A DNA stretch of 64,000 nt from contig JAGWWI010000001.1 in the NCBI GenBank assembly GCA_018970465.1, positions 3,430 through 67,429 on the forward strand. Reading direction: 5' to 3'. The stretch's first letter is position 1. Each line of letters starts with the position of its first letter. The stretch is from Patescibacteria group bacterium. GTDB taxonomy: Bacteria; Patescibacteriota; Minisyncoccia; Phycocordibacterales; Phycocordibacteraceae. The notes under the pieces were generated by a model. It saw only the letters and a list, made by a program, of their open reading frames with translations, searched no databases and was not told the DNA's origin. This document shows positions 1-51,195 of the stretch, in pieces. The position numbers and the translations under genes are program-made.

Positions 1-909
1 AAGCTGCGGCCCGATCCGGCGGGACGGGAAGCGCTTATCTATCGCATGTAGCGCGTCGTCCCAGTCCCCATCGGGGAACTGCTCCATCATCGCGACGACG
101 GCGCCGAGATGCTTGAGGAGATGTGTGCGCCCTTCTTCGGGTGTCAGTCCCTGATGAAGGCGTGTCCTGCGGTTGCCTGTGGCCGTGCGTTCACTCATTT
201 CGTCGAGCGCCTCCAATATGCCCGGCGGCAGCTTCTCGTAAACTATACGGTTGGTGATGTTCGCCACCGCCCACGGGTGGTTCTTCTTGTCCTTCGTGTA
301 GCGCTCCCACGACCACCCTTTAAGGCGATATATCTGGTAGTAGTAGTCCTCGCCGAAGGCCTTGAGCCACGACTGTAGCTCCTTGGCGATGTACCGCGCC
401 ATAAGTCGCTCGTACTCGTCGCGCTCTTTCTGGTAGCCCGTCGCCTCGTCAATAAGAGCGTTGATGCCTACCGTTGCAAAGGCGCCGAGCAAAATACGGC
501 TTTGTTCAGCCACTTTTTGCTGATTTCGGGTCAATTTATGGTCCAAAAGCGCCTTCACCCATATGTCGCAGATCAGTGGTATCACTTCAGCCTTGAGGCC
601 GACGGCCTCGGCGCCATTGAGGGCCGTGTACTCCACTGTCCCAGCCATGATCTCGGGAAGGCGTTCCTCTACATATGGCTGAATGTTTTTCGCCGAGATG
701 AACTCGGGGAGCATGTCAGCGTCTGGGTTCGCCTTCCTCTTCTTCCAGTAAGCGCCACCGCCCTTCACGCCGAGGGCGAGCGCCATACTACGGATCGAGA
801 CGACGCGCTCTTTGTCTTCGAGAACGGCGCACGCAATCTTGAGAGGGCCGAGGTGATCGCCTTGGTGAGTAGCTTTGAGGATTGGGGTCGTGTTCGTCTT
901 TCTTGCCAT
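1..909 (-). CDS. Hypothetical protein, possibly a phage-associated P63C-like domain protein. The 3' end runs off the window edge.
   Basis: Reverse-complement translation from the ATG at 909..907 is open all the way to position 1. It reads MARKTNTTPILKATHQGDHLGPLKIACAVLEDKERVVSIRSMALALGVKGG...GWSWERYTKDKKNHPWAVANITNRIVYEKLPPGILEALDEM...DDALHAIDKRFPSRRIGPQL. The ORF is absent from the supplied track because it runs off the edge. GC is lower than its surroundings, and the antisense ORFs 109..378 and 502..930 are artefacts of it. The family call is from memory and is weak. Confidence 0.6.
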   Translation of the reverse strand, partial: MARKTNTTPILKATHQGDHLGPLKIACAVLEDKERVVSIRSMALALGVKGGGAYWKKRKANPDADMLPEFISAKNIQPYVEERLPEIMAGTVEYTALNGAEAVGLKAEVIPLICDIWVKALLDHKLTRNQQKVAEQSRILLGAFATVGINALIDEATGYQKERDEYERLMARYIAKELQSWLKAFGEDYYYQIYRLKGWSWERYTKDKKNHPWAVANITNRIVYEKLPPGILEALDEMSERTATGNRRTRLHQGLTPEEGRTHLLKHLGAVVAMMEQFPDGDWDDALHAIDKRFPSRRIGPQL

Positions 910-12632: not shown

Positions 12633-15600
12633 GTGGGCGTCATTCTGCGCGGCATAAGCAGCGGCACCACCGGGCAACTGCGCATCGTCCCCAACGGTGG
12701 CGCATGGGCCGATAGCCAAGAAACGACCTATTTCCAAATCACCAACTCATCCAACAACAACGCGTCCTTCCAAGGGGGGACCTATGGCGCTGACACGCAG
12801 CTTAATCGGCTCCAATTCAATGCCTCATCGACGCAGGTTACTGACTACGCATTCGGCTCGACACCGGTCCCCAACTCGGTTTTCGGTGTCGTTTCCTCAA
12901 GTACCGTCAAGACGCTCTTCGCAGTGAAGAATACCGGCGGCTCGCCAAGCGGAGACTATCTGCAAATCTCTTCAAGCGCAGGCGCGGGCGACCTGCTTAA
13001 GGTCACGGGGGCAGGCCTCGTCGGCCTCGGCACCACCTCGCCCTCGACGACCCTCTCTGTCGGAGGAAGCGGATATATCACCGGCGGTCTTGGTGTCGGT
13101 GTCCTCAACACGGCTGCAGGAACCCTCACCACCTCAGGGAACGCGACGATCGGCGGCACGCTCGCGGCTGGCGCCGCCACCACCACCGATCTGGCGATTA
13201 CGCATCTCGCGAATGCGCTTCTTGCGGCGAACGCCGCAGGGTCCGTCGTCGCGACTACTTCGATAGGCGCCAATCTCCTGACAGGCTCTCTCGGTTCCAT
13301 CAACGGCAGCACATTCAACGCTGGTGCTTCGATCACCATCACCGCGGCCTCTTCCACGCTCCTCGCGAATAACAACACCTGGAGCGGCATCAACACGTTC
13401 ACAAACGCCTCTTCGAACTTCGCCGGCACCTGGCAGGGATACAGTCCGTCGGCCTTCGCCACCTTTAGCTATCCGTTCCCGGCGAACGCCACGACCACGC
13501 TTCTGAGCCTGAGCGGAGGGTTTACGGCGTATGCCTCCTCGACCATTGGTAAGGGAGGAGTCAATGGTCTTACTGTCAACGGGAACGCTACTACGACCGG
13601 CACCGCCTACTTTGGCGGGAATGTCGGAATCGCCTCGACCTCGCCGGAGTACCCGCTTTCGGTAGGGAACATTATCGGAATCGATGCGAGCGGAAACATC
13701 CACTTCGCGACGACCACGGAAATCAGTTATCCCGTAAGCCCGGGGAATTCGGCGCTTGATATCGTGGCGCAGAATGATACGTATCACGACAACCTCATCT
13801 CACTCGAAAACGACTCGATCCTTGCGAGCAACGGCCAGTGCGGCAATGATGCGCTCCGGTTCCGTGACAGCGTCGGGCATGTGGAGCGGGGCGCGATAGG
13901 GTATAGCAGCGTCAAGACCGGGTGCACGGCCGGATATAACCCAGACTATCTCTACGCCGAGATAGGGAATATCAACTCCGCAGATCCTGACGACACGAGC
14001 TTCGCCATCATCAACACGCACGGCCCGGGAGCGCTCAACCTTCCCGGGACCTCCTACAAAGTTCTCGACGTGCAGGGCAGCACGGGGAATTTGTCGCTCA
14101 ACGATACCAGCGGGAACTCGCACTTCTATCTCAACGCATCGAACGGTCATATCGGCATCGGAACGACGACGCCCGATGAGGCGCTCGTCGTGAACGACAC
14201 GATACAGGCCGGTAATACGACTCAGAACGGCAACCTCTACTTCGGCGGTTCCACCATCGCGCTCAAGTCGGCGTATTCGTCGAACATTCTAGCGATTTAT
14301 ACCGCCGGCAAAGAAGCCGCTCGATTCGACGGTAATGGGCGATTCGCGGTTGGGACCAGCTCGCCCTTCGCGCAACTTGCGGCATCCTCGACCTCCGTGT
14401 ACCCGACCTTTATTGCTGACCAGCATGGCTCGGCCCCGGTGGCTCTGTTCCTCGGCGGCAACGTCGGCATCGGCACCGCTTCTCCTAATACGAAACTGGA
14501 AGTGGATGGGAATGTAATCTTCAATCCGAACGCCATCGGAGGCGGCGGCCCCAACACCAACTCGGTTAACCTTATCGGCAATACGAATACAACCGCATTC
14601 CGTGCGACCTACAACAGCGTCGGCGCCCTCTTCTTGGGCCATAACTCCTCGAATGCCGTCATCGGTACCGATGGCACCGACCTGGCATTCCGAACCAACA
14701 TCGCGAGCGGCGACCTCACGAGCGGCTCCGAACTCATGCGCATCACCGCAAGCGGCAACGTCGGCATCGGGACGACGAGTCCGAGTTCGATGCTGACCGT
14801 GGGTACTGAAGGGACGACGCAAGCAATCTCCATCTCAGGCAATGCCGCGAGCCTATACACCGGTCGTCCGACCATAGATACCGCGCAGCTGAAGCTCGGT
14901 TCGGTCACTAGTTCGCAAGGCGGCGGCATCGAGTTCCAGGTGTCCTCGGCCAATAACGGCTACGGGTGGAAGATCGCCGCTCCCAACGTGACCAGCGGCA
15001 ACAGCAACCAGAGTCTGCTGTTCCTGGATCGCTCCAATTCTGCGACGTGGTCAGAAAAGATGAGGATCGACGAAAACGGCAACGTCGGCATCGGGACGAC
15101 GAGTCCGGGCTACCCGCTTGATGTTAAGGCGTCGGGCGCAATAGCGGCACGCCTATACGGCAATGCTGGCGCATCGAGCGACAACGTACAAGTGCGATTC
15201 GCGGGCCAAAAGGACGGAGAGTTGTGGGCGCTGGGATCGGATGTTACGGGAGGCGGATCAACGGGAGACTTTGAATTTTATAACTTAGGGAACGCGGGCG
15301 GGTCCATGGGTACGAAGCTGACCATTCTGGGGTCTGGCAACGTCGGTATCGGGACGACGAGTCCGGCCTACAAACTCACTGTCGACAACGCCGGATCGGC
15401 CGGCGGCGTTGCAGGCTTCGAGAATTCCTCGGGCGAGTGCGTCATAAATCCGACATCAAGCTCGATCAACTGCTCGTCCGACCAGCGGCTCAAGACCAAT
15501 TTCGTCTCCATCAGCACTACAACCGCCCTGGCCGATATCGAGGCGCTCTCCCCGACCTATTTCAACTGGAAAACGGAGGCCTCGGGCGCGCCGGAGCACG

Positions 15601-16106
15601 CGGGCTTCATCGCGCAGGAGGTGCAGCCGATCTTACCCGACCTTGTCTCGCAGGGCTCGAACGGCTACTACATGCTGGACTACACGGGCTTCGTGCCGTA
15701 CTTGACCGCGGGGATCCAGGCGCTCGCATACGAGATGCAGGGGCAAAGCGCCGATATAGCCCGTATACAGGGCCTTACGGGCCTCATGGCCACCACGACC
15801 CTCCCCGAGTCGCCCGCCTCGGGCGTCGCGGCCGAGTGCGTCGCGGGCGACACGAAGCTCCGCCGCCGGAGGAAGCGGGCGGACGGGAGCTACGCATACG
15901 ACGAGACCGACATCGCCGATATCGCGCCGGGCGACGAAGTCCTCTCGCTCGACGAGGCGACCGGCTGCGCGGTATACCGCCGCGTGAACGCGCTCCTGCC
16001 GCGCGGCGTGCAGGAGGTATACGAGCTCCGCACCAAGGGCGGCCGCGTGGTCCGAACCACCGCGAACCACCCATACCTTGTCCGCCTTTCCGATATAAGC
16101 GTATGA
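12633..16106 (+). CDS. Giant phage-tail-fibre-like protein: Gly/Thr/Ser-rich beta-helix with (G)NVGIGTTSP fibre repeats, a peptidase-S74 intramolecular-chaperone auto-processing domain, and an intein N-terminal (Hint) segment at the extreme C-terminus. The 5' end is uncertain: the track start is a GTG, and frame 0 is open and coding-like back to about 12394.
   Basis: The motif M/L-R-I-x-x-x-G-N-V-G-I-G-T-T-S-P recurs at least 5 times. S74 chaperone signatures are present: CSSDQRLKTN...HAGFIAQEVQPILPDLV...YMLDYTGFVPYLTAGIQALAYEM. Intein block A (CVAGDTKL) and block B (TANHPYLV) then follow. The stop overlaps the ATG of the next gene (ATGA). Confidence 0.85.
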   Translation: MGVILRGISSGTTGQLRIVPNGGAWADSQETTYFQITNSSNNNASFQGGTYGADTQLNRLQFNASSTQVTDYAFGSTPVPNSVFGVVSSSTVKTLFAVKNTGGSPSGDYLQISSSAGAGDLLKVTGAGLVGLGTTSPSTTLSVGGSGYITGGLGVGVLNTAAGTLTTSGNATIGGTLAAGAATTTDLAITHLANALLAANAAGSVVATTSIGANLLTGSLGSINGSTFNAGASITITAASSTLLANNNTWSGINTFTNASSNFAGTWQGYSPSAFATFSYPFPANATTTLLSLSGGFTAYASSTIGKGGVNGLTVNGNATTTGTAYFGGNVGIASTSPEYPLSVGNIIGIDASGNIHFATTTEISYPVSPGNSALDIVAQNDTYHDNLISLENDSILASNGQCGNDALRFRDSVGHVERGAIGYSSVKTGCTAGYNPDYLYAEIGNINSADPDDTSFAIINTHGPGALNLPGTSYKVLDVQGSTGNLSLNDTSGNSHFYLNASNGHIGIGTTTPDEALVVNDTIQAGNTTQNGNLYFGGSTIALKSAYSSNILAIYTAGKEAARFDGNGRFAVGTSSPFAQLAASSTSVYPTFIADQHGSAPVALFLGGNVGIGTASPNTKLEVDGNVIFNPNAIGGGGPNTNSVNLIGNTNTTAFRATYNSVGALFLGHNSSNAVIGTDGTDLAFRTNIASGDLTSGSELMRITASGNVGIGTTSPSSMLTVGTEGTTQAISISGNAASLYTGRPTIDTAQLKLGSVTSSQGGGIEFQVSSANNGYGWKIAAPNVTSGNSNQSLLFLDRSNSATWSEKMRIDENGNVGIGTTSPGYPLDVKASGAIAARLYGNAGASSDNVQVRFAGQKDGELWALGSDVTGGGSTGDFEFYNLGNAGGSMGTKLTILGSGNVGIGTTSPAYKLTVDNAGSAGGVAGFENSSGECVINPTSSSINCSSDQRLKTNFVSISTTTALADIEALSPTYFNWKTEASGAPEHAGFIAQEVQPILPDLVSQGSNGYYMLDYTGFVPYLTAGIQALAYEMQGQSADIARIQGLTGLMATTTLPESPASGVAAECVAGDTKLRRRRKRADGSYAYDETDIADIAPGDEVLSLDEATGCAVYRRVNALLPRGVQEVYELRTKGGRVVRTTANHPYLVRLSDISV
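15477..15800 (+). other. Peptidase S74 / intramolecular chaperone auto-processing domain (tail-fibre C-terminal chaperone), within the CDS.
   Basis: SDQRLK (containing the presumptive autocleavage Ser) ... GFIAQEV ... LDY ... L.AGIQAL. This is the classical endosialidase / tail-spike chaperone pattern. Confidence 0.75.
15837..16103 (+). other. Intein N-terminal splicing segment (Hint blocks A and B) at the C-terminus of the fibre protein.
   Basis: Cys1 codon at 15837 (…GVAAE|CVAGDTKL). Then ...GDEVLSLDEATG... and block B TTANHPYLV. The segment is about 89 aa and the ORF terminates right after it. Confidence 0.75.
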
Positions 16107-17425
16107 AACATACATTGACCGATGTAAAGAAGCGCGTCACTCCGAGGAATAAATCTGTCGCACAGGTGCGCGGGACGCGGGCGAAAAAGGCGGGAAGTCG
16201 TGAGATTCCAGAGCCGGGAATTCGTGATACGGCTCGCCGCATCGAATCGCGGCGAGCCGACATGTCCGCGCGGATCCGCTGCCCGTATTGCGGCTCCCCG
16301 GAATTCGTGAAGCGCGGCATCCGCAGGAAGAAGCATGAGGCCGTCCAGCTCTATCTCTGCCGCGCGGAGGCCTGCGGCCGCACCTTCACGAGCGAGCGCG
16401 TGAAGGGGAAGCGCTACCCCCTCCGGGTCATCATCGAAGGCATGAGCTACTACAATCTCGGCTGCACGCTCGAGGAGACCTGCCGGCTCTTGAAGAAAAA
16501 GTTCGCCGACGACGCGGGCGTGCTTGCGCCCACGCCCGAGACCCTCGCCGCGTGGGTAGAGCAGTACAAGCCGCTCTGCCGCTACGAGCGCATGCGCCCC
16601 TACGCGGTGAAGCTCTTGCGCCCCGCCGAGACGGTCGAGGTCGTGACCATGGCGCACCGCCAGCTCTATCGCTTCCGCTATCATCGCGCCAAGATGTTCC
16701 TCTCGCTCGAGGAGTTCGGCAACCGGCGCCTCGAACGGCTGAAGCAGTACCTCGACGCGGTGTCGAGCGAGACCCCGCACCAGTACTTCGACGAGGGCGC
16801 GCGCATGAGCGAGGTGAGGAGCCGGTTCGACGCGGCCGACATGATCGTGAAGGGGAAGCACAACTTCGCGAATGACCTCGCCGCGTTCGTCCTGCCCGCA
16901 GTCGAGCGCAACCTCGACCGCCACGAGGCGCTCCAGCGCTTCATGATCGCGAACGACAGCGTGACGGTGGCGACCGAGGTGCCGGTATATATCCGCCGCG
17001 AGGACGTCGAGCACCTCGAGAACGAGCTCAAGTTCAAGATCACGGACGACGGCCGCGTCTCGATGAAGGGGGACAAACAGCCGCGGCAGCTGCCGCAGCT
17101 CCTCACGGGCCATATCGACCTCGTGCAAGTGAGGAACGGCATGGTCCACATCCTCGACTACAAGCCCGGCGCTTCCAAAGAGCGGCCCGTCGAGCAGCTC
17201 ACTTGGTACGCGCTCGCACTCTCCCGGCTCACGGGGCTCCGGCTCTTCGAGTTCAAGTGCGCGTGGTTCGACGATCAGGATTACTACGAGTTCTATCCGC
17301 TCCATGTGGTCAAAAAGCTGCGCCCGGCTTCCGGGAAGAAGCCGCGGCGGCGCTATGTCCACTTCAGGGACGGCACGACGGCCGAGGTGCCGCGCGAGCA
17401 TGCCGCCAAGCCGGTTATCGTATGA
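16103..17425 (+). CDS. Zn-ribbon/HTH (IS1595/InsA-like N-domain) fused to a RecB/Cas4-like PD-(D/E)XK nuclease. A candidate free-standing homing endonuclease inside the split intein.
   Basis: N-terminus RCPYCGSPEFVKRG...YLCRAEACGRTFTSE (CxxC...CxxxxC) followed by an HTH-like YPLRVIIEGMSYYNLGCTLEET. C-terminal motifs are ATEVPVY (E), GHIDLVQVRNGMVHILDYKPG (motif II, D...D.K) and EQLTWYALAL (QxxxY). ATGA overlaps on both sides. Confidence 0.75.
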   Translation: MKHTLTDVKKRVTPRNKSVAQVRGTRAKKAGSREIPEPGIRDTARRIESRRADMSARIRCPYCGSPEFVKRGIRRKKHEAVQLYLCRAEACGRTFTSERVKGKRYPLRVIIEGMSYYNLGCTLEETCRLLKKKFADDAGVLAPTPETLAAWVEQYKPLCRYERMRPYAVKLLRPAETVEVVTMAHRQLYRFRYHRAKMFLSLEEFGNRRLERLKQYLDAVSSETPHQYFDEGARMSEVRSRFDAADMIVKGKHNFANDLAAFVLPAVERNLDRHEALQRFMIANDSVTVATEVPVYIRREDVEHLENELKFKITDDGRVSMKGDKQPRQLPQLLTGHIDLVQVRNGMVHILDYKPGASKERPVEQLTWYALALSRLTGLRLFEFKCAWFDDQDYYEFYPLHVVKKLRPASGKKPRRRYVHFRDGTTAEVPREHAAKPVIV

Positions 17426-17901
17426 TTATGAATTACTACAAGTCCAAGTATGAGCGGCGGCAGTTCGCGCCGAAGAAGCCGGTGAAGACCTTCCGCGACC
17501 TCGATATCTACCAGAAGACGCTCGAGTGCGCGGTCATCGTGATGAAGAACGTGCGCCCGAAGCTGGCTGCGCTCAAGTATCCGTTCCTGGACGGCATGAC
17601 CGATTGCGCCATGAACGTACCGCTTGCGATAGGCGAGGCGCATTCGATCCGCTTCGCGGACTTCGCGAAGGGACTCGGCCACCTGGAGCGCGCCATGAGC
17701 GGCTGCAACAAGATGATCATCTACCTCGAGCATGCGAAGGGGATGCACGGCGCGAAGGCCGATCCCGACAGCATCATCGACGAGCTCGTCGTGCGGTATG
17801 CCGAGAGCCGTACGAAGAGCTTCCGGCTCGAGCAGTCGTGGAAGAAGTGGCGGCAGGCGGACGCCGCGCTTCCCGCCGCTGCCCGCGCCCCGCGCCTATG
17901 A
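17422..17901 (+). CDS. Four-helix-bundle protein (TIGR02436-like; 23S rRNA intervening-sequence protein / DGR Avd family).
   Basis: The sequence FRDLDIYQKTLECAVIV...NVPLAIGEAHS...GLGHLERAMSGCNKMIIYLEHAKGM fits the FRDL..WQKA / NIAEG / GS..E four-helix pattern. About 160 aa, with ATGA overlaps on both sides. Confidence 0.75.
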   Translation: MIMNYYKSKYERRQFAPKKPVKTFRDLDIYQKTLECAVIVMKNVRPKLAALKYPFLDGMTDCAMNVPLAIGEAHSIRFADFAKGLGHLERAMSGCNKMIIYLEHAKGMHGAKADPDSIIDELVVRYAESRTKSFRLEQSWKKWRQADAALPAAARAPRL

Positions 17902-18149
17902 ACATGACCATGCCGCTCAAAAACCTTTCCGGAGATCGCGCGCGCTGGCGCAAGGTATCCGAGCTCGCGCCGGGCATGCTACTTGCCGTCGCCGCTGACG
18001 AGGTCCTCGCGCGCGCGACGGACGGCGTTGAGGACGCCGTGCTCTGGGACGACATCGTCTCGATCGCGTCGGTCGGGCGCGAGGAGGTGTTCGACATTGA
18101 GGTCGCCGGCACGCGCAACTTCGTCGGCAACGGCATCTACGCCCACAAC
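17898..18149 (+). other. Intein C-terminal splicing segment (blocks F and G), within the CDS.
   Basis: Block F VFDIEVAGTRNF, block G NGIYAHN, and a +1 Thr nucleophile. Confidence 0.7.
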
Positions 18150-19292
18150 ACGTATCTGCCGTCCGCCACCACGCTGCTCACGGTGGGCGGCGCGGCGGTG
18201 GACGCGGCCGCGTACATCGTCCCGGATGAGCCGGTCGTCGTCGAGTCCGGTGATGCGACGACGACCTTGAGTGCGCCGTCCGATGCGCTCGCGCCGGGCG
18301 GCGGCGTCGACCTCTATACGCTCGGACTCCACGACCTGGCGGCAGTCAACGCGCTCGCCGCCGAGGTCGACGCCAATGCCTCCACCACCGCTGCTCAGGG
18401 TACGAGTATCGCTACGCTCCGGTCCTCCCTCGCCGCCCTCCAGGGCGTGAACCTCGACCTCGCGGCCGTCGCGTCCTCCACCCTCGACATCGCGAGCACG
18501 ACAACGCCCTTGGACGCCGCGCAGGCGTTCGCGCAAGGGTTCTTCGGGAGCCTCTTTGCGCATATCACGAGCTGGCTCGCGAATAGCGGGAATGGGATAG
18601 GCAACCTCTTCGCCGCCGTGATCCACACAAACGAGCTCTGCGTCAAGGACGCGGCGGGCGCGGACGTCTGCATCACGGGCGACCAGCTCGCCGCGGCGGT
18701 CTCGGGCGCGGGCGCCGCCGCGCTCCCCGGCGTCACGACCGCCGACACGACCGTCACGAGCCAGAGCTCGACTGGCGCCGCGAGCACCGCCTCCTCCACC
18801 CCCTCCACCTCCACCGACGTCACTCCCCCCGTCGTCACCCTCCTCGGCTCCGCAGCGATGAACATCACCCAGGGCGCCGCCTTCACCGACCCTGGTGCGA
18901 CCGCTACAGACGACACCGACGGCGACCTGACCGCCAAGATCGTCGTCTCGGGCGCCGTCGACCCCGCAACCCCCGGCCTCTACACCCTCACCTACTCAGC
19001 GACCGACGCCGCCGGCAATACCGGCACCGCCTCCCGCGTGGTCACCGTCACCGCTGCAGGCTCCTCCACCCCAGACACCACCGCCTCCTCCACGCCTTCT
19101 GCAAGCACGAGCGGATCCGTCGCCTCCTCCAACACCGCCCCGGCCGACACCTCGACCGCTCCTCCGACGACGAGCACCACTGATACGACGACCGCACCCA
19201 CCCCGACCTCCGCAACCACCGATACCACTACGACGAGTGCAGCGGCGACGACCGATACCACCGCGAGCGCCCCGGCCGCAAGCGGCAATTAA
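17898..19292 (+). CDS. Protein beginning with an intein C-terminal splicing segment (blocks F and G, ...GIYAHN|T). It is followed by an extein with a bacterial Ig-like (DUF5011/Big-like) domain and a Thr/Ser/Pro-rich tail.
   Basis: N-terminus ...VLWDDIVSIASVGREEVFDIEVAGTRNFVGNGIYAHN then T(+1)YLPS.... Downstream, PPVVTLLGSAAMNITQGAAFTDPGATATDDTDGDLTAKIVVSGAVDPATPGLYTLTYSATDAAGNTGTASRVVTV is an Ig-like domain pattern. The gene is in the same frame as the fibre gene. The start is an internal ATG of track ORF 17526..19292. Confidence 0.8.
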   Translation: MNMTMPLKNLSGDRARWRKVSELAPGMLLAVAADEVLARATDGVEDAVLWDDIVSIASVGREEVFDIEVAGTRNFVGNGIYAHNTYLPSATTLLTVGGAAVDAAAYIVPDEPVVVESGDATTTLSAPSDALAPGGGVDLYTLGLHDLAAVNALAAEVDANASTTAAQGTSIATLRSSLAALQGVNLDLAAVASSTLDIASTTTPLDAAQAFAQGFFGSLFAHITSWLANSGNGIGNLFAAVIHTNELCVKDAAGADVCITGDQLAAAVSGAGAAALPGVTTADTTVTSQSSTGAASTASSTPSTSTDVTPPVVTLLGSAAMNITQGAAFTDPGATATDDTDGDLTAKIVVSGAVDPATPGLYTLTYSATDAAGNTGTASRVVTVTAAGSSTPDTTASSTPSASTSGSVASSNTAPADTSTAPPTTSTTDTTTAPTPTSATTDTTTTSAAATTDTTASAPAASGN

Positions 19293-19573: not shown

Positions 19574-20116
19574 ATGCTTAGCCGGTACGACATACGAGGC
19601 AGGGTGGGCGTTTTTATCGACGCGGCGAATATTTTTTACTCGCAGCGCACGCTCGGGTGGCGTATCGACTTTGGCAGGCTCGCCGGGTATCTGAAAGGGG
19701 AGATCGATATAAAGGGCATGTACTATTACACCGGCAAAGTCGGCGCGCTCGCAAAGCAAGTATCCTTTCTCCAGAAGCTGCAATCTCTCGGCTACGAGGT
19801 AACTGCGAAAGAGGTGAAGTTCATAAAAACCGGCGGCGGTGCCCAGATCCCCAAGGGCAATCTTGATGTGGAACTCGCGCTCGATGCCTTCAGGCTCAAA
19901 GAGAATTTCGACGTATTTTTGCTGTTCTCGGGTGATTCAGACTTCGCGTATCTCATCGACCTTCTGAAACAGGCAGGGAAGCGCGTGTTCGTCCTCTCGA
20001 CGCGCGGCCATGTCTCGAAGGAACTGCTTGATCGCGCGAAGTATATAGATCTGCGGCGGCTCAGGGCCTTCGCGGAAAAGATCAAGGGGCCGGACGAGCC
20101 GGCCCCTGAGGTCTGA
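19574..20116 (+). CDS. NYN-domain (LabA/DUF88-like) putative RNase.
   Basis: GVFIDAANIFYS (N-terminal Asp), DVELALDAF, and LLFSGDSDFAYLIDLLKQAGKRVFV: the NYN/PIN-like acidic residues in the canonical order. Confidence 0.75.
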   Translation: MLSRYDIRGRVGVFIDAANIFYSQRTLGWRIDFGRLAGYLKGEIDIKGMYYYTGKVGALAKQVSFLQKLQSLGYEVTAKEVKFIKTGGGAQIPKGNLDVELALDAFRLKENFDVFLLFSGDSDFAYLIDLLKQAGKRVFVLSTRGHVSKELLDRAKYIDLRRLRAFAEKIKGPDEPAPEV

Positions 20117-20130
20117 CACAGCCACTATAT

Positions 20131-20586
20131 ATGACCCATTCTAAACGTCAAGTGAATAGCGGCCGGCTCGTGAGGCAGAGCCTCGCGGCGAAGCGTTTCT
20201 CCCTTTTTCTCCCTTTCTTCCTCTTCCTCCCGCTGCTCCCCCTTTCTACCCTTTTCCTTTTCCCCGCCGAAGCGCACGCCTCCGCCTTCACCCGCCCGCC
20301 GAACAATTTGGGCCTCGTCGGCTACTGGAATTTCGACGAAGGCTCGGGCACCGTCGCGCACGACCGCTCGGGGCAGGGCAACAACGGCACGCTCGTCAAT
20401 GCGCCGACGTGGGTGAAAGGGAAGGTGAACGGGGCGCTGTCGTTCAATGGGACGAATCAGTGTGTCGATGCGGGCAATGCCTCGTCGCTCAATGTGAGCG
20501 CCGCCACCGGCATGGCAGCCTGCGCTTGGTTATATCTGAATTCATACAGCTCCAGTACAGCTCTACAAGCTCGGGCATTGATATGA
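20131..20586 (+). pseudogene. Truncated LamG/ConA-like surface-protein gene. It keeps the N-terminal signal/TM and the first about 60% of one LamG domain, and is disrupted downstream by an AT-rich insertion carrying hicBA.
   Basis: It starts MTHSKRQVNSG..., like the intact paralog at 21840. It then reads AHASAFTRPPNNLGLVGYWNFDEGSG...ALSFNGTNQ, diverging at ...LNSY into an AT-rich sequence and a stop. The 5' DNA is nearly identical to the start of the 21840 gene. Confidence 0.6.
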
Positions 20587-20639: not shown

Positions 20640-20843
20640 CTACAAATCCCTCGACGAGAGTCCGCTCTGTTTCAAAATCGATCGCAGCGTGCTCTCGGGC
20701 AGATCTCCCGTGTGCATCGGGACGGTGACGCGCCGCTTGTCGTGCTCCCGATAGTAGATGCGGTGACTGCCTTTTTGCCTTTGGAATATGTATCCTTCCC
20801 GCTCAAGCGCGCGGCACAAAGTGCGGGCCGAAACGCCGGCCAT
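20640..20843 (-). CDS. hicA: HicA-family mRNA interferase toxin (type II TA).
   Basis: The 67-aa product LCRALEREGYIFQRQKGSHRIYYREHDKRRVTVPMHTGDLPESTLRSILKQSGL matches the YcfA/HicA consensus (GSH..., tvPhH...l..gtlrsIlkq). Confidence 0.8.
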   Translation of the reverse strand: MAGVSARTLCRALEREGYIFQRQKGSHRIYYREHDKRRVTVPMHTGDLPESTLRSILKQSGLSSRDL

Positions 20844-20846
20844 ATA

Positions 20847-21080
20847 CTATCGGGCAATTCCCACCTCGATGCTTCCCAGGAGCGTCGTGTCGGCTTCGGG
20901 CGCTTTTTCACCCGCTGCCTCCATGTCTTCCAAATACAGTTCGATCGCCTCGCGCGCCATCGCGCGCGCCTCGTTCATGTCGGCGCCGTAGGTGACGCAG
21001 CCAGGAAGCGCAGGCACCGTAACGGTGTACCCGCCTTGCGGATCGGATTCGAAGACAAGCTGGAAGGTCTGTTTGGTCAT
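20847..21080 (-). CDS. hicB: HicB-family antitoxin (UPF0150 fold).
   Basis: The 77-aa product FQLVFESDPQGGYTVTVPALPGCVTYGADMNEARAMAREAIELYLEDM matches the HicB N-terminal domain pattern (y.v.ie...gGy.a.vP.LpGc.t.G.t.eEa...EAi). It lies immediately upstream of hicA. Confidence 0.75.
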   Translation of the reverse strand: MTKQTFQLVFESDPQGGYTVTVPALPGCVTYGADMNEARAMAREAIELYLEDMEAAGEKAPEADTTLLGSIEVGIAR

Positions 21081-21116: not shown

Positions 21117-21371
21117 ATGAAGTATAAAGGGCTCAAGAGAGCGCTGCTTTGCGCGTCTCCCTTTATGCTTGCTACCTTATTCTTGCTTCCTCCGCTCGCG
21201 CACGCGAGCGTCCTCACCCGCCCGGCCAACAATTTGGGCCTCGTGGGGTACTGGCAATTCAACGAAGGCTCGGGCTCGCTCGCGCACGACACCTCTGGTG
21301 CTGGCAACACGGGTACGCTCGTCGGTTCGCCGAGCTGGGTGGCGGGGAAGGTGGGCGGAGCGATAGTATGA
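21117..21371 (+). pseudogene. N-terminal fragment of a LamG-repeat surface protein (signal peptide plus about 55 aa of LamG domain), truncated where the mazF-like gene begins.
   Basis: The product MKYKGLKRALLCASPFMLATLFLLPPLAHASVLTRPANNLGLVGYWQFNEGSGSLAHDTSGAGNTGTLVGSPSWVAGKVGGAIV reaches a stop 1 nt before the MazF-like ATG. Confidence 0.55.
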
Positions 21372-21372
21372 C

Positions 21373-21816
21373 ATGAGTATGCGAAAAGATTTCGATACAT
21401 GGAATGGAGAGAAGAAGCGCATCAACGAGCACGACACGGGCGCACTCTATTTCTACGAGCGTGAGATCTGGTGGTGTTCTCTTGGAGTGAACGTGGGCTT
21501 CGAGCAGGATGGGACGAATGAGCTATTCCAGCGCCCTGTCGTGATACTGAAAAAGTACAATCCGCAGATTTTTCTCGCTCTGCCGCTCTCGACGACATCC
21601 AAGCGCGGAAGCTATTATTGGCCGGTGGGCATCGTGGACGGTGAACAAGCCGTCGCGATACTCTCGCAGTTGCGCCTTTTGGATTCTAAACGACTGACGA
21701 ATCGCATCGGCATACTCGGCAAAAAGGAATTCGATCTTCTCGTCGGGGAAACCGTCGCCGCGAATTTCCCCACCTTAAAAAGTTCTCCCCCGCCGGGAGG
21801 CGGGGGCAAGCCGTGA
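21373..21816 (+). CDS. MazF/PemK/Kid-family toxin-like endoribonuclease with no adjacent antitoxin.
   Basis: The sequence EREIWWCSLGVNVGFEQDGTNELFQRPVVIL...LALPLSTTSKRG...AVAILSQLRLLDSKRLTNRIGIL aligns with the Kid/PemK blocks GEIW.v.l....G.EQ.G.RPvlIv / vP.Ts / R..D..R. Lower GC than the flanks. Confidence 0.7.
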   Translation: MSMRKDFDTWNGEKKRINEHDTGALYFYEREIWWCSLGVNVGFEQDGTNELFQRPVVILKKYNPQIFLALPLSTTSKRGSYYWPVGIVDGEQAVAILSQLRLLDSKRLTNRIGILGKKEFDLLVGETVAANFPTLKSSPPPGGGGKP

Positions 21817-21839
21817 GGCCGTTTGTGACTAGAGTATAT

Positions 21840-24029: not shown

Positions 24030-24044
24030 TATGAAGACTGTCGT

Positions 24045-26867
24045 ATGACGCTCAAGCAATCGCACGCTCCCGAAGGCTACAAGCAGCTGCTCGCATACCA
24101 GAAGGCGGAGCGGCTGCAGGAGGCGTGCGCGGCGTTCACGTCCCGTTTCTCCCATTTTTCCCATTCGCCCCATTTCCGCACCCTGATGGCGCTCGCGGAT
24201 CAGATGGACCGCTCCGCCCGCTCGGTGAAGCAGAACATCGTGGAGGGGTGGAAGAGGAATTCGACGAAGGAATACTACGACTTCCTCGGATTCTCGATCG
24301 GCGCGAACGCGGAGCTGCAGGAGGATTGCGACGACATCATCAAGGGCCGGTATGAAATGGGAGGAAAAGGGTTGAAAAGGGAAGAATGGGAGGAAGGGGA
24401 GAAATGGGATATCGAAAGGGTAGAAAAGCTGCCCTTTTACCCCCTTGATTCCCATTTGCCCCTTTTGATCCAGCTCCGGCTGCGCTGCAAAGAATTGAAT
24501 TTCCTGCTCGACAAACTGCAGAAATCTCTCGCCGAGAAGATGCGCGAGGATCACACCCTTTCCGGCGCCGATCGGTTCAACGCGGCTCGCCGCGCGCAAG
24601 CGGAAGAGGATAAGTGGTTTGCAAAAAGTTTGGAGGAGCAAGGGCTCACGCGGCTCTCCAACGGGCAGGTCGTAACAAAGGGAGAAAAGGGTAACAAAGG
24701 GGAGAAAGGAAGCGTCCGCCTTTCCCTTTTTCTCCTATTTTCCCCCTTCCTCCTTTTTTCCTTTTTGCTGCTTCCCGCGCCCGCAGAGGCCGCGCTCACC
24801 CGCCCGCCCAACAACCTCGGCCTCGTCGGCTACTGGCCTTTCGACGAAGGCAGCGGCTCGACTGCGTACGACCGAAGCGGCTTCGGCAACAACGGGACGC
24901 TCGTGAATTCGCCCGCGTGGACGGTGGGGAAGCTGGGCGGGGCACTGAGCTTCAATGGGACGAATCAATACACCACGACGGGAACCACGAGTTTCCCCAC
25001 AGGTTCGTCCGCGCGATCCGTCTTCGCTTGGATTTATGTAGCGGGTTCTACGGGCAACGAGCAAGACGTGTTCTCGTACGGAAACGGCGGAACCACCGTT
25101 CAAGCTTCCAATTTCGGCATGCAAGCTTCGGGGCTCAAGCTCTTTTTTTCGTCTTGGGGATCGGGAAGCGCAACTTTTAACAGCAGTCTTTCCGTGACTA
25201 CTGGCACGTGGCATTTCGTCGGGTATACCCTCACGAGCTCCGGCACCGCCACGCTCTATTTGGATGGAACCTCCGCTCAAGCTACGGGCATGAGCGTTGG
25301 TACGGTCATACCGGCGGTATCGGACGCATCCGTCATAGGATCTGGGCCGAATGGCCAGGAATCTGGCAGATACTTCGACGGTAAGATAGACGACGTCCGC
25401 ATCTACAACCGTGCGCTCTCCGCCGCAGACGTGGCCCGCCTCTACCAGCTCGGCACCGCGGTCGCGGGGCCAACGAAGATCACGAGCCCCACCACCTTCC
25501 TCACCAACGGCCTCGTCGGCTACTGGACTTTCGACGGCAAGAATATGGTCAACAACGTCGCCGACAGCTCCGGCAACGGCAATAACGGCTCGCTCGTCGG
25601 CTTCACCTCGACCACGACCGCCGAGACGCTCGGCAAGATCGGCCAGGCGCTGAATTTTAATGGGACGAATCAGTATGTGCTCGTGCCTGACGCACCAAGT
25701 ATCCGTCTCTCGAACAAGTTCAGCATTTCTTTTTGGTTCAAGACAGCGAACCTTGCTCAAACCAATACCTATATCATGTCGCGCAACAACTCCACGGGCG
25801 GTACTCAAAGTTCCATTATTTTTGGATTCGTGCCGAGTACCATTGAATTCTACGCCTCAGGCTTTAGTGGCTCGGATCCCCGGACCGGTTCTCAAATCAG
25901 CATCTCCGATACCAGATGGCATCAGGTGACCTACACCTACGATGGAACGACGTGGAGTGGCTATCGTGACGGTCAACAGATATTTTCCACCAGCCGCACA
26001 TTTTCGCTCAGTACCGCTTCGCTTGATGGGTGGTACATCGGCTCGGCCAATACATTTGCAAATTTTATCAAGGCGTCACTCGACGACGTCCGCATCTACA
26101 ACCGCGCGCTCTCGGCGAGCGAGGTGCAGGAGCTCTACAACGCCACCGGCGGCGCGCCCACCATTACGCCCGCGGCCGTCGCGGCTGCGGGCCCCGCGCC
26201 CGGGAACCTCGTCGGCTACTGGACATTCAACAACAAGGACATGAACTGGCAGACCGGCATCGCGCTCGACAAGAGCGGCCAAGGCAACAACGGCACGCTC
26301 ATCAACATGAGCACGACGACTTCGCCGGTGGAAGGCAAGGTGGGGCAGGCGCTCAAGTTCAACGGGACGAGTCAGTATGTCAAAGTTTCGAATGGCACGA
26401 TAGTGAAAACGCTTCCCAACTCGTCAATCTCAGCGTGGATAAAAGTCGCGGGAACAGTCGGATCGACCGCTCAAACTATTTACAGTGAAAATGAGCCCCT
26501 GGGAGTCGATTACGGTCTTCTTGTTGAAGGCAGCGGCAACAACGGTTGCGGCGCCAGTACCGCGGGCAGGGCTTCTTTTTATATGGCCAACGGTTCTGAC
26601 CACAACGCCTGCACGACGACGCGTGTCGACGACGGGAAATGGCATTATTTGGTTGCGACGTACTCTGGTGGTTCTGCGATGAACATATACCTCGACGGAG
26701 TATTGAGCGGCTCTGGCACGGGTAGTGCAGCTGCGAGTGCTGCGGCCTCCTACGTCGGCAGGTCCGGGCAGGGAGTCTATTTCAACGGCACCATCGACGA
26801 CGTCCGCATCTACAACACCGCGCTCACGGCCGCGCAGGTCTTGCAGCTCTACAACGCGACGAAGTGA
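24045..26867 (+). CDS. Fusion ORF: an N-terminal four-helix-bundle (TIGR02436/Avd-family) domain, a low-complexity linker and TM, then a LamG/ConA-like surface protein with about 4 LamG domains. It may instead be two genes, with the LamG part starting at an internal ATG near 24538.
   Basis: Residues 1-about 150 read LAYQKAERLQEACAAFTSRF...RSARSVKQNIVEGWKRNSTKEYYDFLGFSIGANAELQEDCDD...LIQLRLRCKELNFLLDKL, a four-helix-bundle pattern. Then comes a TM LFLLFSPFLLFSFLLLPAPAEA|ALTRPPNNLGLVGYW and repeated LamG units ending ...IDDVRIYNRALSA.EV. A 5-codon uORF (ATG 24031 ... TGA) overlaps the start as ATGA. Confidence 0.75.
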   Translation: MTLKQSHAPEGYKQLLAYQKAERLQEACAAFTSRFSHFSHSPHFRTLMALADQMDRSARSVKQNIVEGWKRNSTKEYYDFLGFSIGANAELQEDCDDIIKGRYEMGGKGLKREEWEEGEKWDIERVEKLPFYPLDSHLPLLIQLRLRCKELNFLLDKLQKSLAEKMREDHTLSGADRFNAARRAQAEEDKWFAKSLEEQGLTRLSNGQVVTKGEKGNKGEKGSVRLSLFLLFSPFLLFSFLLLPAPAEAALTRPPNNLGLVGYWPFDEGSGSTAYDRSGFGNNGTLVNSPAWTVGKLGGALSFNGTNQYTTTGTTSFPTGSSARSVFAWIYVAGSTGNEQDVFSYGNGGTTVQASNFGMQASGLKLFFSSWGSGSATFNSSLSVTTGTWHFVGYTLTSSGTATLYLDGTSAQATGMSVGTVIPAVSDASVIGSGPNGQESGRYFDGKIDDVRIYNRALSAADVARLYQLGTAVAGPTKITSPTTFLTNGLVGYWTFDGKNMVNNVADSSGNGNNGSLVGFTSTTTAETLGKIGQALNFNGTNQYVLVPDAPSIRLSNKFSISFWFKTANLAQTNTYIMSRNNSTGGTQSSIIFGFVPSTIEFYASGFSGSDPRTGSQISISDTRWHQVTYTYDGTTWSGYRDGQQIFSTSRTFSLSTASLDGWYIGSANTFANFIKASLDDVRIYNRALSASEVQELYNATGGAPTITPAAVAAAGPAPGNLVGYWTFNNKDMNWQTGIALDKSGQGNNGTLINMSTTTSPVEGKVGQALKFNGTSQYVKVSNGTIVKTLPNSSISAWIKVAGTVGSTAQTIYSENEPLGVDYGLLVEGSGNNGCGASTAGRASFYMANGSDHNACTTTRVDDGKWHYLVATYSGGSAMNIYLDGVLSGSGTGSAAASAAASYVGRSGQGVYFNGTIDDVRIYNTALTAAQVLQLYNATK

Positions 26868-26868
26868 T

Positions 26869-27327
26869 ATGGGAAAGGAGTTTGACCGATGGAATGCGGA
26901 GAAAAAGAAAGCGGATCGCGAAGCGCCGCGACTATACACTGTTCGCGAGATGTGGTGGTGTCGGCTGGGCGTCAATGTGGGTACGGAACAGGACGGCAGC
27001 GGGGAGAAGTTTCTCCGGCCGGTTGTCATCCTGCGCGGATTCGCTGCCGACGCTTGTCTGGTCGTCCCGCTCACCACTTCGCAGCGCGGGCATCGCTTGC
27101 GCGTTTCCGTAGGCATTGTCGACGGGAAGCGGACGCTGGCCAACCTTTCGCAGATTCGCGTCGTCGATACTCGACGACTGGTAGAAAAGATAGGCTTCCT
27201 CGATAATGGATATTTTCGAATTGCGAAAAGCCGCTCACAGTCTCGTGTGAGCGGCCCTGCGAACATTCTCCCCTTTGCAGGGGTGAGGCCGAAGCCAACT
27301 ATGGCTCCCATCATAGGAGCGCCATAG
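26869..27327 (+). CDS. MazF/PemK/Kid-family toxin-like protein, paralog of 21373..21816, with no adjacent antitoxin.
   Basis: MGKEFDRWNAEKKKADREAPRLYTVREMWWCRLGVNVGTEQDGSGEKFLRPVVILRG...LVVPLTTSQRG...LANLSQIRVVDTRRLVEKIGFL shows the same block structure as the first copy. Its ATG lies 1 nt after the LamG gene stop. Confidence 0.7.
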   Translation: MGKEFDRWNAEKKKADREAPRLYTVREMWWCRLGVNVGTEQDGSGEKFLRPVVILRGFAADACLVVPLTTSQRGHRLRVSVGIVDGKRTLANLSQIRVVDTRRLVEKIGFLDNGYFRIAKSRSQSRVSGPANILPFAGVRPKPTMAPIIGAP

Positions 27328-51121: not shown

Positions 51122-51195
51122 GCCGCCTTAGCTCAGCTGGTTAGAGCAGCCGATTTGTAATCGGCAGGTCCTCGGTTCGAATCCGAGAGGCGGCT
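51122..51195 (+). tRNA. tRNA-Thr (anticodon UGU).
   Basis: Cloverleaf: acceptor GCCGCCT/AGGCGGC, D-arm GCTC-AGCTGGTTA-GAGC, anticodon stem GCCGA/TCGGC with loop TTTGTAA, short variable loop AGGTC, T-arm CTCGG-TTCGAAT-CCGAG, discriminator T. CCA is not encoded. Confidence 0.85.

Follow-up and report, generated by a model that had tools for sequence, protein, structure and literature searches.

What are two small four-helix-bundle genes doing in the 64-kb stretch of Patescibacteria DNA analysed here (the window), one of them inside an intein and the other continuous with a LamG surface protein? An earlier note, made from the sequence alone, assigned both to the Avd/23S-IVS superfamily and proposed that they are either mobile-element passengers or the marks of a diversity-generating retroelement (DGR) whose reverse transcriptase (RT) and TR would be found beyond the window. 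These two ORFs, here called 4HB1 and 4HB2, are the only ones of their kind in the window; their surroundings are summarised in Table 1.

Table 1. Coordinates (window positions) of the features discussed in the text.
Feature	Coordinates	Strand	Description
N-extein	12633..15836	+	Tail-fibre-like giant surface protein; GNVGIGTTSP-type repeats; Peptidase_S74 intramolecular-chaperone domain
N-intein half	15837..16106	+	89 aa; Cys1 (CVAGDTKL); block B (TTANHPY)
Nuclease	16103..17425	+	Zn-ribbon (IS1/IS1595-type CPYC...CxxC), helical region and PD-(D/E)xK
4HB1	17422..17901	+	Basic four-helix-bundle protein, pI 9.7; divergent S23/IVS/Avd-superfamily member; ATGA overlap at each end
C-intein half	17898..18149	+	84 aa; blocks F and G (VFDIEVAGTRNFVGNGIYAHN), then Thr+1
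C-extein	18150..19292	+	Ig-like surface domain and Thr/Ser/Ala-rich tail; Bact_surface_Ig-like E 1.8e-24 (Pfam)
NYN-domain nuclease gene	19574..20116	+	Pfam NYN E 8.5e-26
Mini-ORF (MKTVV, stop)	24031..24048	+	5 codons; overlaps the 4HB2 start (ATG 24045) as ATGA
4HB2	24045..24713	+	Four-helix bundle (PF05635/TIGR02436) plus a C-terminal extension specific to its family
Signal/TM segment of LamG gene	24714..24791	+	Hydrophobic (VRLSLFLLFSPFLLFSFLLLPAPAEA/A); now internal; placed from the paralogue N-termini at 20131 and 21840
LamG domains of fused ORF	24792..26867	+	Three Laminin_G_3 stretches, E 1.3e-77 (Pfam)

The gene that hosts the intein encodes a giant protein whose N-extein matches Peptidase_S74 (E 8.9e-16, Pfam) and tail-fibre families (E down to 6e-29, PHROG). 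The intein blocks are divided over two ORFs, with blocks A and B (CVAGDTKL and TTANHPY) in 12633-16106 and blocks F and G (VFDIEVAGTRNFV and GIYAHN/T) in 17898-19292, and Cys1, TxxH, HN and a nucleophilic +1 residue are all present and conserved in relatives: Cys1 and TxxH are retained in 18 homologous N halves from related loci, and HN/T in 21 of 23 related C halves. Profile searches match the N half to positions 10-71 of Intein_splicing (E 1.7e-4) and to Hint (E 6e-5), and the C half to positions 114-155 of Intein_splicing (E 1.7e-8) and to TIGR01443 (27.8 bits against a cut-off of 15.6). The halves are complementary stretches of one Intein_splicing profile, which bears out the proposal that 4HB1 lies inside a split intein, between an N half at 15837-16103 and a C half at 17898-18149. 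From the intact Cys1, TxxH and HN/Thr+1, we infer that the two halves trans-splice.

Between block B and block F, that is, at the endonuclease-insertion site, stands the free-standing PD-(D/E)xK gene (16103-17425), whose ATG overlaps the N-intein stop codon as ATGA. This is the arrangement of the ‘fractured genes’, in which a free-standing homing-endonuclease gene lies between the halves of a split intein and the endonuclease also occurs as a stand-alone insert (Dassa et al. 2009, PMC2677866). As in those genes, the host ORF is broken at the intein endonuclease-insertion site, the N- and C-intein sit on adjacent ORFs with the nuclease between them, and the same nuclease family is also found on its own outside inteins. 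The two cases differ, however, in that the host gene, from Patescibacteria, codes for a tail-fibre-like giant surface protein rather than a phage DNA-metabolism enzyme, in that the nuclease combines a Zn-ribbon with a Cas4/RecB-like PD-(D/E)xK core instead of belonging to a Vsr-like family, and in that the insert consists of two genes, one of them for an Avd-like protein, often with extra cargo (NYN, Bro-N and TA genes). The arrangement described here also looks vertically inherited within its clade.

Relatives present a graded series of the same intein, which runs from a contiguous, empty mini-intein (L081), through a contiguous intein with an NYN domain in frame (L059) and loci where N-extein, N-intein and nuclease form a single ORF (L031, L048 and L062), to the fully separate ORFs of the window; the intein is thus found empty, NYN-filled and cassette-filled, and its inheritance looks mainly vertical. 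The NYN gene that lies further downstream in the window is, in relatives, often located within the same split intein. A read-through product of nuclease, 4HB1 and C-intein, which share a frame in L016 and L021, was considered and rejected, as the common frame occurs at about chance frequency and the frames differ in the window. No relevant publication came up in our search of the literature on this cassette, on NYN domains in inteins and on inteins of CPR giant proteins.

The nuclease is 440 aa long when read from ATG 16103 and 387 aa from the start used by NCBI (ATG 16262). It scores 25.4 bits against PDDEXK_1 (Pfam cut-off 22), its zinc-binding domain scores 30.9 bits against NF050000 (cut-off 28), and further matches are to Cas4-like and exonuclease entries (PADLOC, PHROGs). 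The active site H-I-D...L-D-Y-K is invariant across 23 homologues, in a family of more than 2,300 proteins; the AF2 model (pLDDT 51, pTM 0.37) was too poor for placement among nuclease families. By this domain composition, the Zn-ribbon region would bind DNA and the PD-(D/E)xK domain would form the catalytic core.

4HB1 itself is predicted to be an up-down four-helix bundle of about 110-130 residues that can be superimposed on solved structures of the PF05635/TIGR02436 family, and its top structural matches are S23/IVS proteins and the DGR protein Avd. Its pI of 9.7 is similar to that of bAvd (9.55), and three cysteines are invariant within its subfamily. Sequence models of the family do not recover it directly: 4HB1 falls below the PF05635 and TIGR02436 cut-offs, with no Pfam or NCBIfam match at E<=0.01 and a best family-model score of 14 bits (NF008912, E 0.034, cut-off 124), the precomputed Pfam domain is absent in 120 of the 120 homologues listed, and PADLOC and PHROGs scans gave nothing usable. 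Likewise, a search of PDB sequences with a profile of the 4HB1 family returned a chance match only, and phmmer with bAvd found no match in the window or in 173 loci. An hmmsearch with the 4HB1-family profile returned 28 distant matches, 18 of which are PF05635 proteins (E 1e-9 to 1e-17). An hhalign comparison of the 4HB1 and 4HB2 families was not significant (probability 1.3%, E 0.04), with the alignment in register, and is given no weight here. Since direct family models miss 4HB1, its assignment to the Avd/23S-IVS superfamily rests on fold and transitive profiles, and on these we conclude that it belongs there. For 4HB2 the family models suffice (45.5-49.2 bits against PF05635, cut-off 33.8, and 46-47 bits against TIGR02436, cut-off 24, over residues 14-93), so that the superfamily originally proposed for both ORFs holds for each of them.

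The most constant neighbour of 4HB1 is the nuclease, which lies directly upstream on the same strand in 71 of 74 GTDB loci, with a median gap of 33 nt. The pairing is also seen in loci picked via the nuclease (L178-L180), and it is kept in a distant lineage with another gene order (L177), where the four-helix bundle has 24% and the nuclease 46% identity. Across 72 loci the identities of the two proteins co-vary (r=0.78), and one 561-aa protein (P0400) consists of the full nuclease followed by 4HB1. The earlier suggestion that 4HB1 is a mobile-element passenger is thus right about the neighbourhood, which is rich in small selfish genes (two PemK-like genes, HicAB and NYN, among genes that are mostly toxin-antitoxin modules), but not about the gene, because a near-obligate nuclease partner and a natural fusion with it are not what a loose passenger would have.

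Is there, then, a DGR in which 4HB1, 4HB2 or both serve as Avd, with RT and TR outside the window or lost? Both proteins do belong to the Avd/S23 superfamily, 4HB2-type genes, like avd, occupy a position just 3' of genes for surface proteins, and a DGR-type RT occurs within 6-7 kb in two loci with 4HB1 relatives (L022, L044) and one with a 4HB2 relative (L140). These three, however, are all that was found among 160 related loci (80 with 4HB1 relatives and 80 with 4HB2 relatives), and in L022 and L140, the two of them that were looked at more closely, the RT is adjoined by a short canonical Avd-like ORF of its own (119 and 125 aa). The window, as had been noted, contains no RT: Pfam scans of 20 further large ORFs revealed no RVT domain, and phmmer with the BPP-1 bRT found no match in the six-frame translation, while the same query finds the RTs of all three loci. 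Nor does the 64-kb window hold a TR/VR pair with adenine-specific mismatches; its strongest self-matches come from domain paralogues of the LamG or giant genes, and A accounts for no more than 70% of the mismatches, in pairs of 57-59 nt with 10 mismatches. As the constant neighbour of 4HB1 is, moreover, a nuclease and not an RT, the DGR explanation is largely refuted and to our minds exceedingly improbable, and a role of 4HB1 and 4HB2 as DGR parts is not supported; this genome may have an RT elsewhere, but nothing ties one to these two genes. Rfam and tRNA scans yielded only a tRNA-Thr at 51122, and hence no known RNA associated with 4HB1 or 4HB2.

For 4HB2, the presence of the four-helix unit at the start of the ORF was confirmed, but its extent, judged from homologues, is about 205-220 aa and not the roughly 150 codons first claimed. 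More than 500 homologues of 4HB2 carry PF05635; homologues are stand-alone proteins of 190-290 aa, ending about 3-8 residues past NGQxVxK. 4HB2 is a stand-alone PF05635 gene that in Patescibacteria commonly lies just after surface-protein genes. The mini-ORF that had been described in front of it, from ATG 24031 through MKTVV-TGA and overlapping ATG 24045 as ATGA, is present; as a conserved regulatory feature it was rejected, as relatives of 4HB2 start 1-45 nt past the upstream gene and have no such ORF.

In the window the stop codon expected a few codons past ...NGQVVTK is missing, and the ORF runs on unbroken to 26867, taking in a hydrophobic segment followed by three Laminin_G_3 matches, as the earlier reading had it. 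That two separate genes have been joined here by an assembly or sequencing error is very unlikely, even though 4HB2 is separate from LamG in all 80 relatives examined and the junction lies in error-prone, low-complexity purine/pyrimidine repeats of 9-10 nt. An identical 940-aa fusion protein is encoded in a second, independently assembled MAG (GCA_028865925.1), so that two MAGs carry the fusion in their DNA. Furthermore, a single indel error could not restore two genes, since no ATG or GTG start precedes the signal segment and the conserved LamG N-terminus MTHS(K/E)RQVNSG is wholly missing. Analogous in-frame fusions to a downstream signal peptidase also recur in other organisms (P0161, L098 and L101). 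The fusion probably arose by a deletion that took the 4HB2 stop codon together with the 5' portion of the LamG gene that follows, and the retained signal-peptidase-type site (AEA/A) would still permit export and release of the LamG part. Given its occurrence in 0 of 80 relatives, the 4HB2-LamG fusion is a lineage-specific accident and no family trait.

Taken together, the best reading of the locus, to which we give about an even chance, is that of a two-subunit, homing-endonuclease-type nuclease with 4HB1 as its Avd-like accessory protein, housed in a split intein, with 4HB2 a separate, fused gene and with no DGR involved. The intein, of class 1, has the cassette at its canonical endonuclease-insertion site and would thereby be divided into two trans-splicing halves as in a fractured gene. 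The four ORFs, which overlap as ATGA, may be translationally coupled on a single transcript; the intein halves would reassociate and ligate the exteins, as their conserved catalytic residues suggest. The nuclease would then introduce a site-specific DNA break that may lead to homing-type copying of the cassette or the intein. 4HB1, the small basic subunit of this two-gene cassette, could act as an oligomeric helical scaffold that binds both nuclease and nucleic acid and is required for, or tunes, nuclease activity, much as Avd does with the DGR reverse transcriptase. This role is proposed from the strict gene linkage, from the fusion protein that occurs naturally, and from fold and charge; the interaction of 4HB1 with the nuclease and the site specificity of the latter are likewise proposals.

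The mode of inheritance bears on this reading. Only about a quarter of the cassettes (19 of 74 loci) lie within an intein; in the remainder, found in Patescibacteria and in a small number of DPANN archaea, the cassette is placed just downstream of the same S74 tail-fibre-like giant gene, which is intact there. Mean identities of the nuclease (69%) and 4HB1 (62%) are close to that of GAPDH (68%) and correlate with it (r = 0.80 and 0.90, respectively, n = 12). As identity tracks GAPDH, inheritance of the two genes looks mostly vertical, under strong purifying selection, and this pattern points to a host-retained function or an addiction module as a better fit than an actively homing selfish gene.

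The nuclease-4HB1 complex might accordingly have been domesticated for a cellular role, such as introducing programmed breaks from which recombination or variation of the adjacent giant and LamG genes follows, or in general DNA repair or uptake, the intein site being a clade-specific accident. Conservation as strong as that of GAPDH, the constant place beside the S74 giant gene in bacteria and archaea alike, the majority of copies outside any intein and the lack of relatives of either protein in pattern scans of IMG/VR (2.9 million viral contigs) all speak for such a function. On the other hand, neither a target site nor a donor cassette nor a footprint of recombination was found, the repeats of the LamG and giant genes are ordinary domain paralogues of 60-80% identity, and decayed or truncated copies (P0445, P0446, P0462, P0469 and L006) are what a dispensable element would leave; we regard domestication as quite unlikely.

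Alternatively, the pair may be a toxin-antitoxin (TA) or nuclease-inhibitor module, with the PD-(D/E)xK protein as a toxic nuclease and 4HB1 as its neutralising partner, kept by addiction, that entered the intein gap as other TA modules there have done. The tight coupling of a small ORF to the nuclease gene and a gene order compatible with type II modules would suit it, as would the PemK-like, HicAB, RelE-like, DUF433/PIN-like and MNT/HEPN genes held by the neighbourhood and by the split-intein gaps of relatives. In addition, 4HB1 lacks an adjacent nuclease in three loci and stands intact beside a truncated one in a fourth, which is the direction of decay expected of a toxin. GAPDH-level conservation and co-divergence with the host are, however, unusual in TA modules; a single-chain toxin-antitoxin fusion like the 561-aa protein would be odd; in three loci the nuclease is in frame with the N-intein of the giant protein, as an intein endonuclease domain would be; and 4HB1 has neither a PADLOC match nor a recognisable DNA-binding antitoxin domain. 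We consider this explanation unlikely, if a serious contender.

The preferred reading, a nuclease with an Avd-like accessory subunit, has partial counterparts in known systems. I-Ssp6803I is a homing endonuclease of the PD-(D/E)xK type; yeast HO, which has a zinc-finger domain, is an intein endonuclease that has been domesticated. Like intein endonucleases, the nuclease described here sits at the intein endonuclease site, and in it a zinc-binding region for DNA recognition is joined to a nuclease core; unlike them, it requires, or in any case always retains, a second, small protein as partner, and its homing role is a proposed one. Avd is a barrel-shaped pentamer with positive charge that resembles S23 proteins, and bRT has no activity in its absence (bioRxiv 10.1101/2023.10.23.563531). 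4HB1 departs from Avd (PDB 4DWL, 8UB7) in that it is paired with a nuclease and not with a reverse transcriptase, goes with no TR/VR or spacer RNA, has no similarity to bAvd that phmmer detects, and contains three subfamily-invariant cysteines. In CPR, rRNA insertion sequences are known to carry PF05635 ORFs (PMC11270868), and the 4HB1 gene resembles these ORFs in occupying a slot otherwise used by homing endonucleases, although its slot is an intein in a protein-coding gene rather than an rRNA insertion. Within the S23 family (PF05635, TIGR02436; PDB 2RLD, 2GSC), 4HB2 passes both cut-offs, whereas 4HB1 lies under the family models and joins by structure and profile search; 4HB2 differs from the family in a C-terminal extension of about 110 aa and repeat-encoded loops.

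These findings remove a false lead, in that 4HB1 and 4HB2 are no sign of a DGR at work on the LamG array. They also extend the fractured-gene route to split inteins from phage DNA-metabolism genes to the giant surface proteins of Patescibacteria, with intermediates kept in related genomes, and these naturally split inteins, whose break falls at an unusual place (89 + 84 residues), may interest protein engineers. Going further, one could imagine that S23/IVS/Avd bundles are general accessory subunits of the nucleic-acid enzymes of selfish elements, and that the nuclease-4HB1 pair is a domesticated, intein-derived, HO-like break-maker that varies surface proteins by recombination, an RT-free counterpart of the DGR; we hold this combined view to be improbable. 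To our knowledge, S23/23S-IVS structures have been solved, and a function is known only for the DGR Avd branch of the family. The cassette adds a branch that is firmly linked to an enzyme of another kind, a nuclease with Zn-ribbon and PD-(D/E)xK core. As 4HB1 is tied to a nuclease in the endonuclease slot of an intein, and canonical members occur in rRNA insertion sequences, a testable, family-wide hypothesis would be that S23 proteins act as oligomeric, nucleic-acid-binding helpers of selfish-element enzymes.

Between 12.6 and 19.3 kb, four plus-strand ORFs follow one another, each stop codon overlapping the next start as ATGA (at 16103, 17422 and 17898). The first, a giant surface-protein gene, ends in an 89-residue N-intein (CVAGDTKL...TTANHPY...), and the fourth begins with an 84-residue C-intein that closes with ...VFDIEVAGTRNFVGNGIYAHN|T. 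The two halves match complementary stretches of one Pfam profile (10-71 and 114-155 of 155 positions), and the split point separates block B from block F, at the usual place of the homing endonuclease in inteins. Cys1 and TxxH are retained in every related N half covering those positions, and HN|Thr+1 in 21 of 23 related C halves. The window carries a split intein with intact catalytic motifs, enclosing a cassette of two genes: a nuclease gene and the four-helix-bundle ORF 4HB1.

Features of the window, and example intein gaps with extra genes in related loci
Feature	Position	Strand	Remarks
P63C-domain protein	1-909	-	at window edge
Giant surface protein, N-extein and N-intein	12633-16106	+	PHROG tail-fibre matches, Peptidase_S74 chaperone domain
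Nuclease, 440 aa	16103-17425	+	zinc ribbon and PD-(D/E)xK core
4HB1	17422-17901	+	four-helix-bundle ORF
C-intein, then Ig-like domain and Thr/Ser-rich tail	17898-19292	+	
LamG gene, truncated 5' copy	20131-20586		
HicA/HicB pair	20640-21080	-	between the two truncated LamG 5' copies
LamG gene, truncated 5' copy	about 21171-21371		
PemK-like gene	21373-21816		after second truncated LamG copy
PemK-like gene, second	26869-27327		
Example cargo gap, L023	887-1711		
Example cargo gap, L024	4740-5162		
Example cargo gap, L016	408-894		
Example cargo gap, L080	4868-5518		

4HB1 was missed by the family models in Pfam and NCBIfam scans, and the literal 'GSxxE' motif that had been read in it is absent. 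Its AF2 model (pLDDT 85.6, 30 homologues as input) has four long helices. Searching 1.84 billion representative proteins with a profile of its family returned 233 proteins; 18 of 28 distant full-length matches (E 1e-9 to 1e-17) are PF05635 by Pfam, among them P0463 (E 2.6e-13), whose PF05635 annotation is also independent. The predicted fold and these transitive matches bear out the proposed Avd/IVS-type four-helix bundle and place 4HB1 as a divergent branch of the S23/IVS/Avd superfamily. Three cysteines are invariant in its subfamily, and it is basic (pI 9.7), as is the Avd of phage BPP-1 (bAvd, 9.55). The window is part of a metagenome-assembled genome (MAG) of Patescibacteria (CPR); translated, 17428-17901 gives exactly NCBI protein KGO04_00130 ('Patescibacteria group bacterium'), and its nearest relatives are labelled Kaiserbacteria or Paceibacterota.

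The nuclease combines a zinc ribbon of the IS1/IS1595 type (30.9 bits to NF050000) with a catalytic core matching PDDEXK_1 (25.4 bits, cut-off 22), with further weak matches to Cas4-like and exonuclease families. It is highly conserved, its zinc-ribbon cysteines and H-I-D...L-D-Y-K motif being invariant across 23 homologues. A scan with one genome per GTDB species gave 154 relatives of 4HB1, nearly all in Patescibacteria with a few in DPANN archaea; 80 loci were kept, 74 with sufficient upstream sequence. The nuclease gene lies directly upstream on the same strand in 71 of these 74 (median 33 nt from nuclease stop to 4HB1 match in the linked loci), and the linkage is also seen with the nuclease as bait (L178-L180). 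It extends to one remote lineage (L177), in which the gene order is 4HB, Bro-N, nuclease, at identities of 24% (4HB) and 46% (nuclease). Furthermore, nuclease identity co-varies with 4HB1 identity (r = 0.78, n = 72), and P0400 is a single 561-aa protein with the full nuclease followed head-to-tail by 4HB1. By this strict linkage, together with the co-variation and the natural fusion, 4HB1 is one half of a two-gene unit with the nuclease rather than a free passenger. Decayed forms also occur, as truncated and deletion-fused copies (P0445, P0446, P0462, P0469, L006).

HMMs built from the intein halves, used on the flanks of related loci, recognised such halves in no more than roughly one locus in four (C-intein just downstream in 19 of 74). 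In the remaining loci the cassette lies immediately 3' of an intact giant gene and 5' of genes such as GAPDH and RpiB, the intein-nested arrangement being limited to the closer relatives. L081 has a contiguous, empty mini-intein. L059 (1025-2299) has a contiguous unsplit intein of the window's family whose endonuclease-insertion site is taken up by a NYN domain (PIN-like nuclease) in the same frame, its nuclease-4HB1 cassette being located downstream of the giant gene; we found no mention in the literature of NYN domains in inteins. In L031, L048 and L062 a single unbroken ORF (e.g. L062:442-2127) spans N-extein, N-intein and nuclease, with 4HB1 and the C-intein as separate ORFs 3' of it; this is a stage midway from a classical intein endonuclease to a fractured gene, and the fully separate ORFs of the window are also part of this graded series. 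The split-intein gaps of L013-L080 carry variable extra genes between N-intein and nuclease: NYN, identified by similarity, and, by eye from translations, Bro-N-like and PemK/MazF-like genes and RelE-like and DUF433/PIN-like pairs, both pairs on the minus strand. The gap behaves as a place where small selfish genes land. The earlier note's view of 4HB1 as a mobile-element passenger is half borne out; its free-passenger part fails against the near-constant upstream nuclease.

The window arrangement corresponds to the fractured genes of Dassa et al., who also note the same endonucleases as stand-alone inserts (PMC2677866), but differs from them in host gene, nuclease type and an obligatory second gene. 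Other systems closest to 4HB1 are the Avd of diversity-generating retroelements (DGRs) and the PF05635 ORFs of 23S-rRNA intervening sequences and CPR rRNA insertion sequences; those in the CPR insertions, called functionally uncharacterised by the authors who describe them, occur together with endonuclease ORFs of the LAGLIDADG and GIY-YIG types (PMC11270868). Within the incomplete coverage of our literature search, neither the pairing of an Avd-like protein with a PD-(D/E)xK nuclease nor a nuclease-4HB1 cassette in Patescibacteria inteins turned up as previously described. In an unrelated organism (L176:1470-5459), genes of an mbh/mrp-type hydrogenase-antiporter operon alternate with a pair of canonical PF05635 ORFs and an endonuclease ORF of the Vsr-like DUF559 family, a stand-alone insertion of the kind made by free-standing endonuclease genes.

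The second four-helix bundle, 4HB2, opens the LamG ORF 24045-26867, and its residues 14-93 exceed both the PF05635 and TIGR02436 cut-offs, as its proposed family membership implied. Its homologues (>500) stand alone, measure about 190-290 aa, and all have a C-terminal extension that stops 3-8 residues past ...NGQxVxK. In the window the expected stop is missing, and the frame continues via KGEKGNKGEKG into a LamG signal peptide without the paralogues' MTHS(K/E)RQVNSG start; no ATG or GTG precedes this signal peptide, the one alternative start being a TTG at 24630 that lacks support. Because a second MAG encodes exactly the same 940-aa protein, the in-frame fusion is real DNA and not a sequencing error. 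LamG fusion occurs in none of 80 4HB2 relatives; in P0161, L098:1016-2164 and L101:1132-2295, a 4HB2-family domain is fused in frame to a downstream type-I signal peptidase (Peptidase_S26), running through the membrane anchor in parallel with the window fusion. Since 4HB2 relatives overlap their downstream neighbour by ATGA, such fusions would be easy to form, and since the fusion keeps a cleavage-type site (AEA|A), the fused LamG part may plausibly still be exported and released. The 5-codon mini-ORF reported ahead of 4HB2 is present, though not conserved in relatives.

The LamG array (20-26 kb) has a GC content of 0.56-0.57, against 0.62-0.69 for most of the window, and the truncated LamG 5' copies have a conserved leader in common (20126-20184 versus 21835-21893, 83% identity). 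Period-9/10 pyrimidine/purine repeats (TCCCATTTC / GGGAGGAAT) of alternating orientation occupy 24141-24766 and 20196-20254; they pair as inverted repeats of 36 nt with 81% complementarity, hence imperfect, and encode low-complexity loops, tail and signal peptide. The pair motif CCC[ACT]TT-N2-6-CCC[ACT]TT was observed 17 times (0.27 expected), always within the 4HB2 gene or LamG signal-peptide stretch, and in relatives it is found immediately ahead of the start codon of 4HB2.

The earlier note had alternatively suggested that both genes mark a DGR whose reverse transcriptase (RT) and TR lie outside the window, in which it saw no RT. Pfam found no RT among the ORFs of this region or among 20 further large window ORFs. 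A phmmer search with BPP-1 bRT (from AY029185), covering the window in six frames plus 173 loci (1.36 Mb), matched only L022, L044 and L140. 4HB1 and 4HB2 are the only four-helix-bundle ORFs in the window, and no repeat pairs with adenine-specific mismatches were found there. DGR parts are absent from the window, and the marker claim is not supported by these RT and TR/VR searches of its 64 kb. L022:6536-10297 and L140:4414-7466 are genuine DGRs with their own target gene (products ending ...FSVRCLKN or ...DSRCVRR), the first 2 kb from a 4HB1 cassette and the second right beside a 4HB2 gene. Each RT is accompanied by a separate short Avd-like ORF (119 aa in L022, 125 aa in L140), and with the window lacking both RT and adenine-biased repeats, any DGR role for 4HB1 or 4HB2 is very improbable.

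Across 12 loci also carrying GAPDH, the nuclease averages 69% identity to the window copy, 4HB1 62% and GAPDH 68%, and cassette identity tracks that of GAPDH (r = 0.80 for the nuclease, 0.90 for 4HB1). With the nested state confined to closer relatives, this points to a cassette inherited mainly vertically and kept by strong purifying selection, but passed at least once to DPANN archaea. In L090 and L091 (Aenigmatarchaeota, archaeon GW2011_AR5; nuclease 49-51% and 4HB1 43% identity) the cassette adjoins giant surface proteins of the same repeat type, implying cross-domain transfer, perhaps together with the giant gene. IMG/VR, searched for nuclease and 4HB1, yielded no relatives, which together with the vertical pattern weakens active homing and leaves only moderate confidence in our best reading, that 4HB1 is an Avd-like accessory of an intein-associated nuclease. 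The same vertical descent and weakened homing keep alive a toxin/inhibitor pair, in which 4HB1 would neutralise a toxic nuclease, which we regard as unlikely, and a domesticated host function of the cassette, which we regard as slightly less likely still.

bRT is inactive without Avd (bioRxiv 10.1101/2023.10.23.563531). By analogy, a 4HB1 oligomer would bind nuclease and nucleic acid, and would be needed for, or modulate, cleavage by a site-specific nuclease; the intein halves would trans-splice, and the cassette would once have homed. To this joint reading, whose functional part is drawn from genomic association, we give an even chance. The cassette thereby offers a testable role for the long-uncharacterised S23/IVS family.
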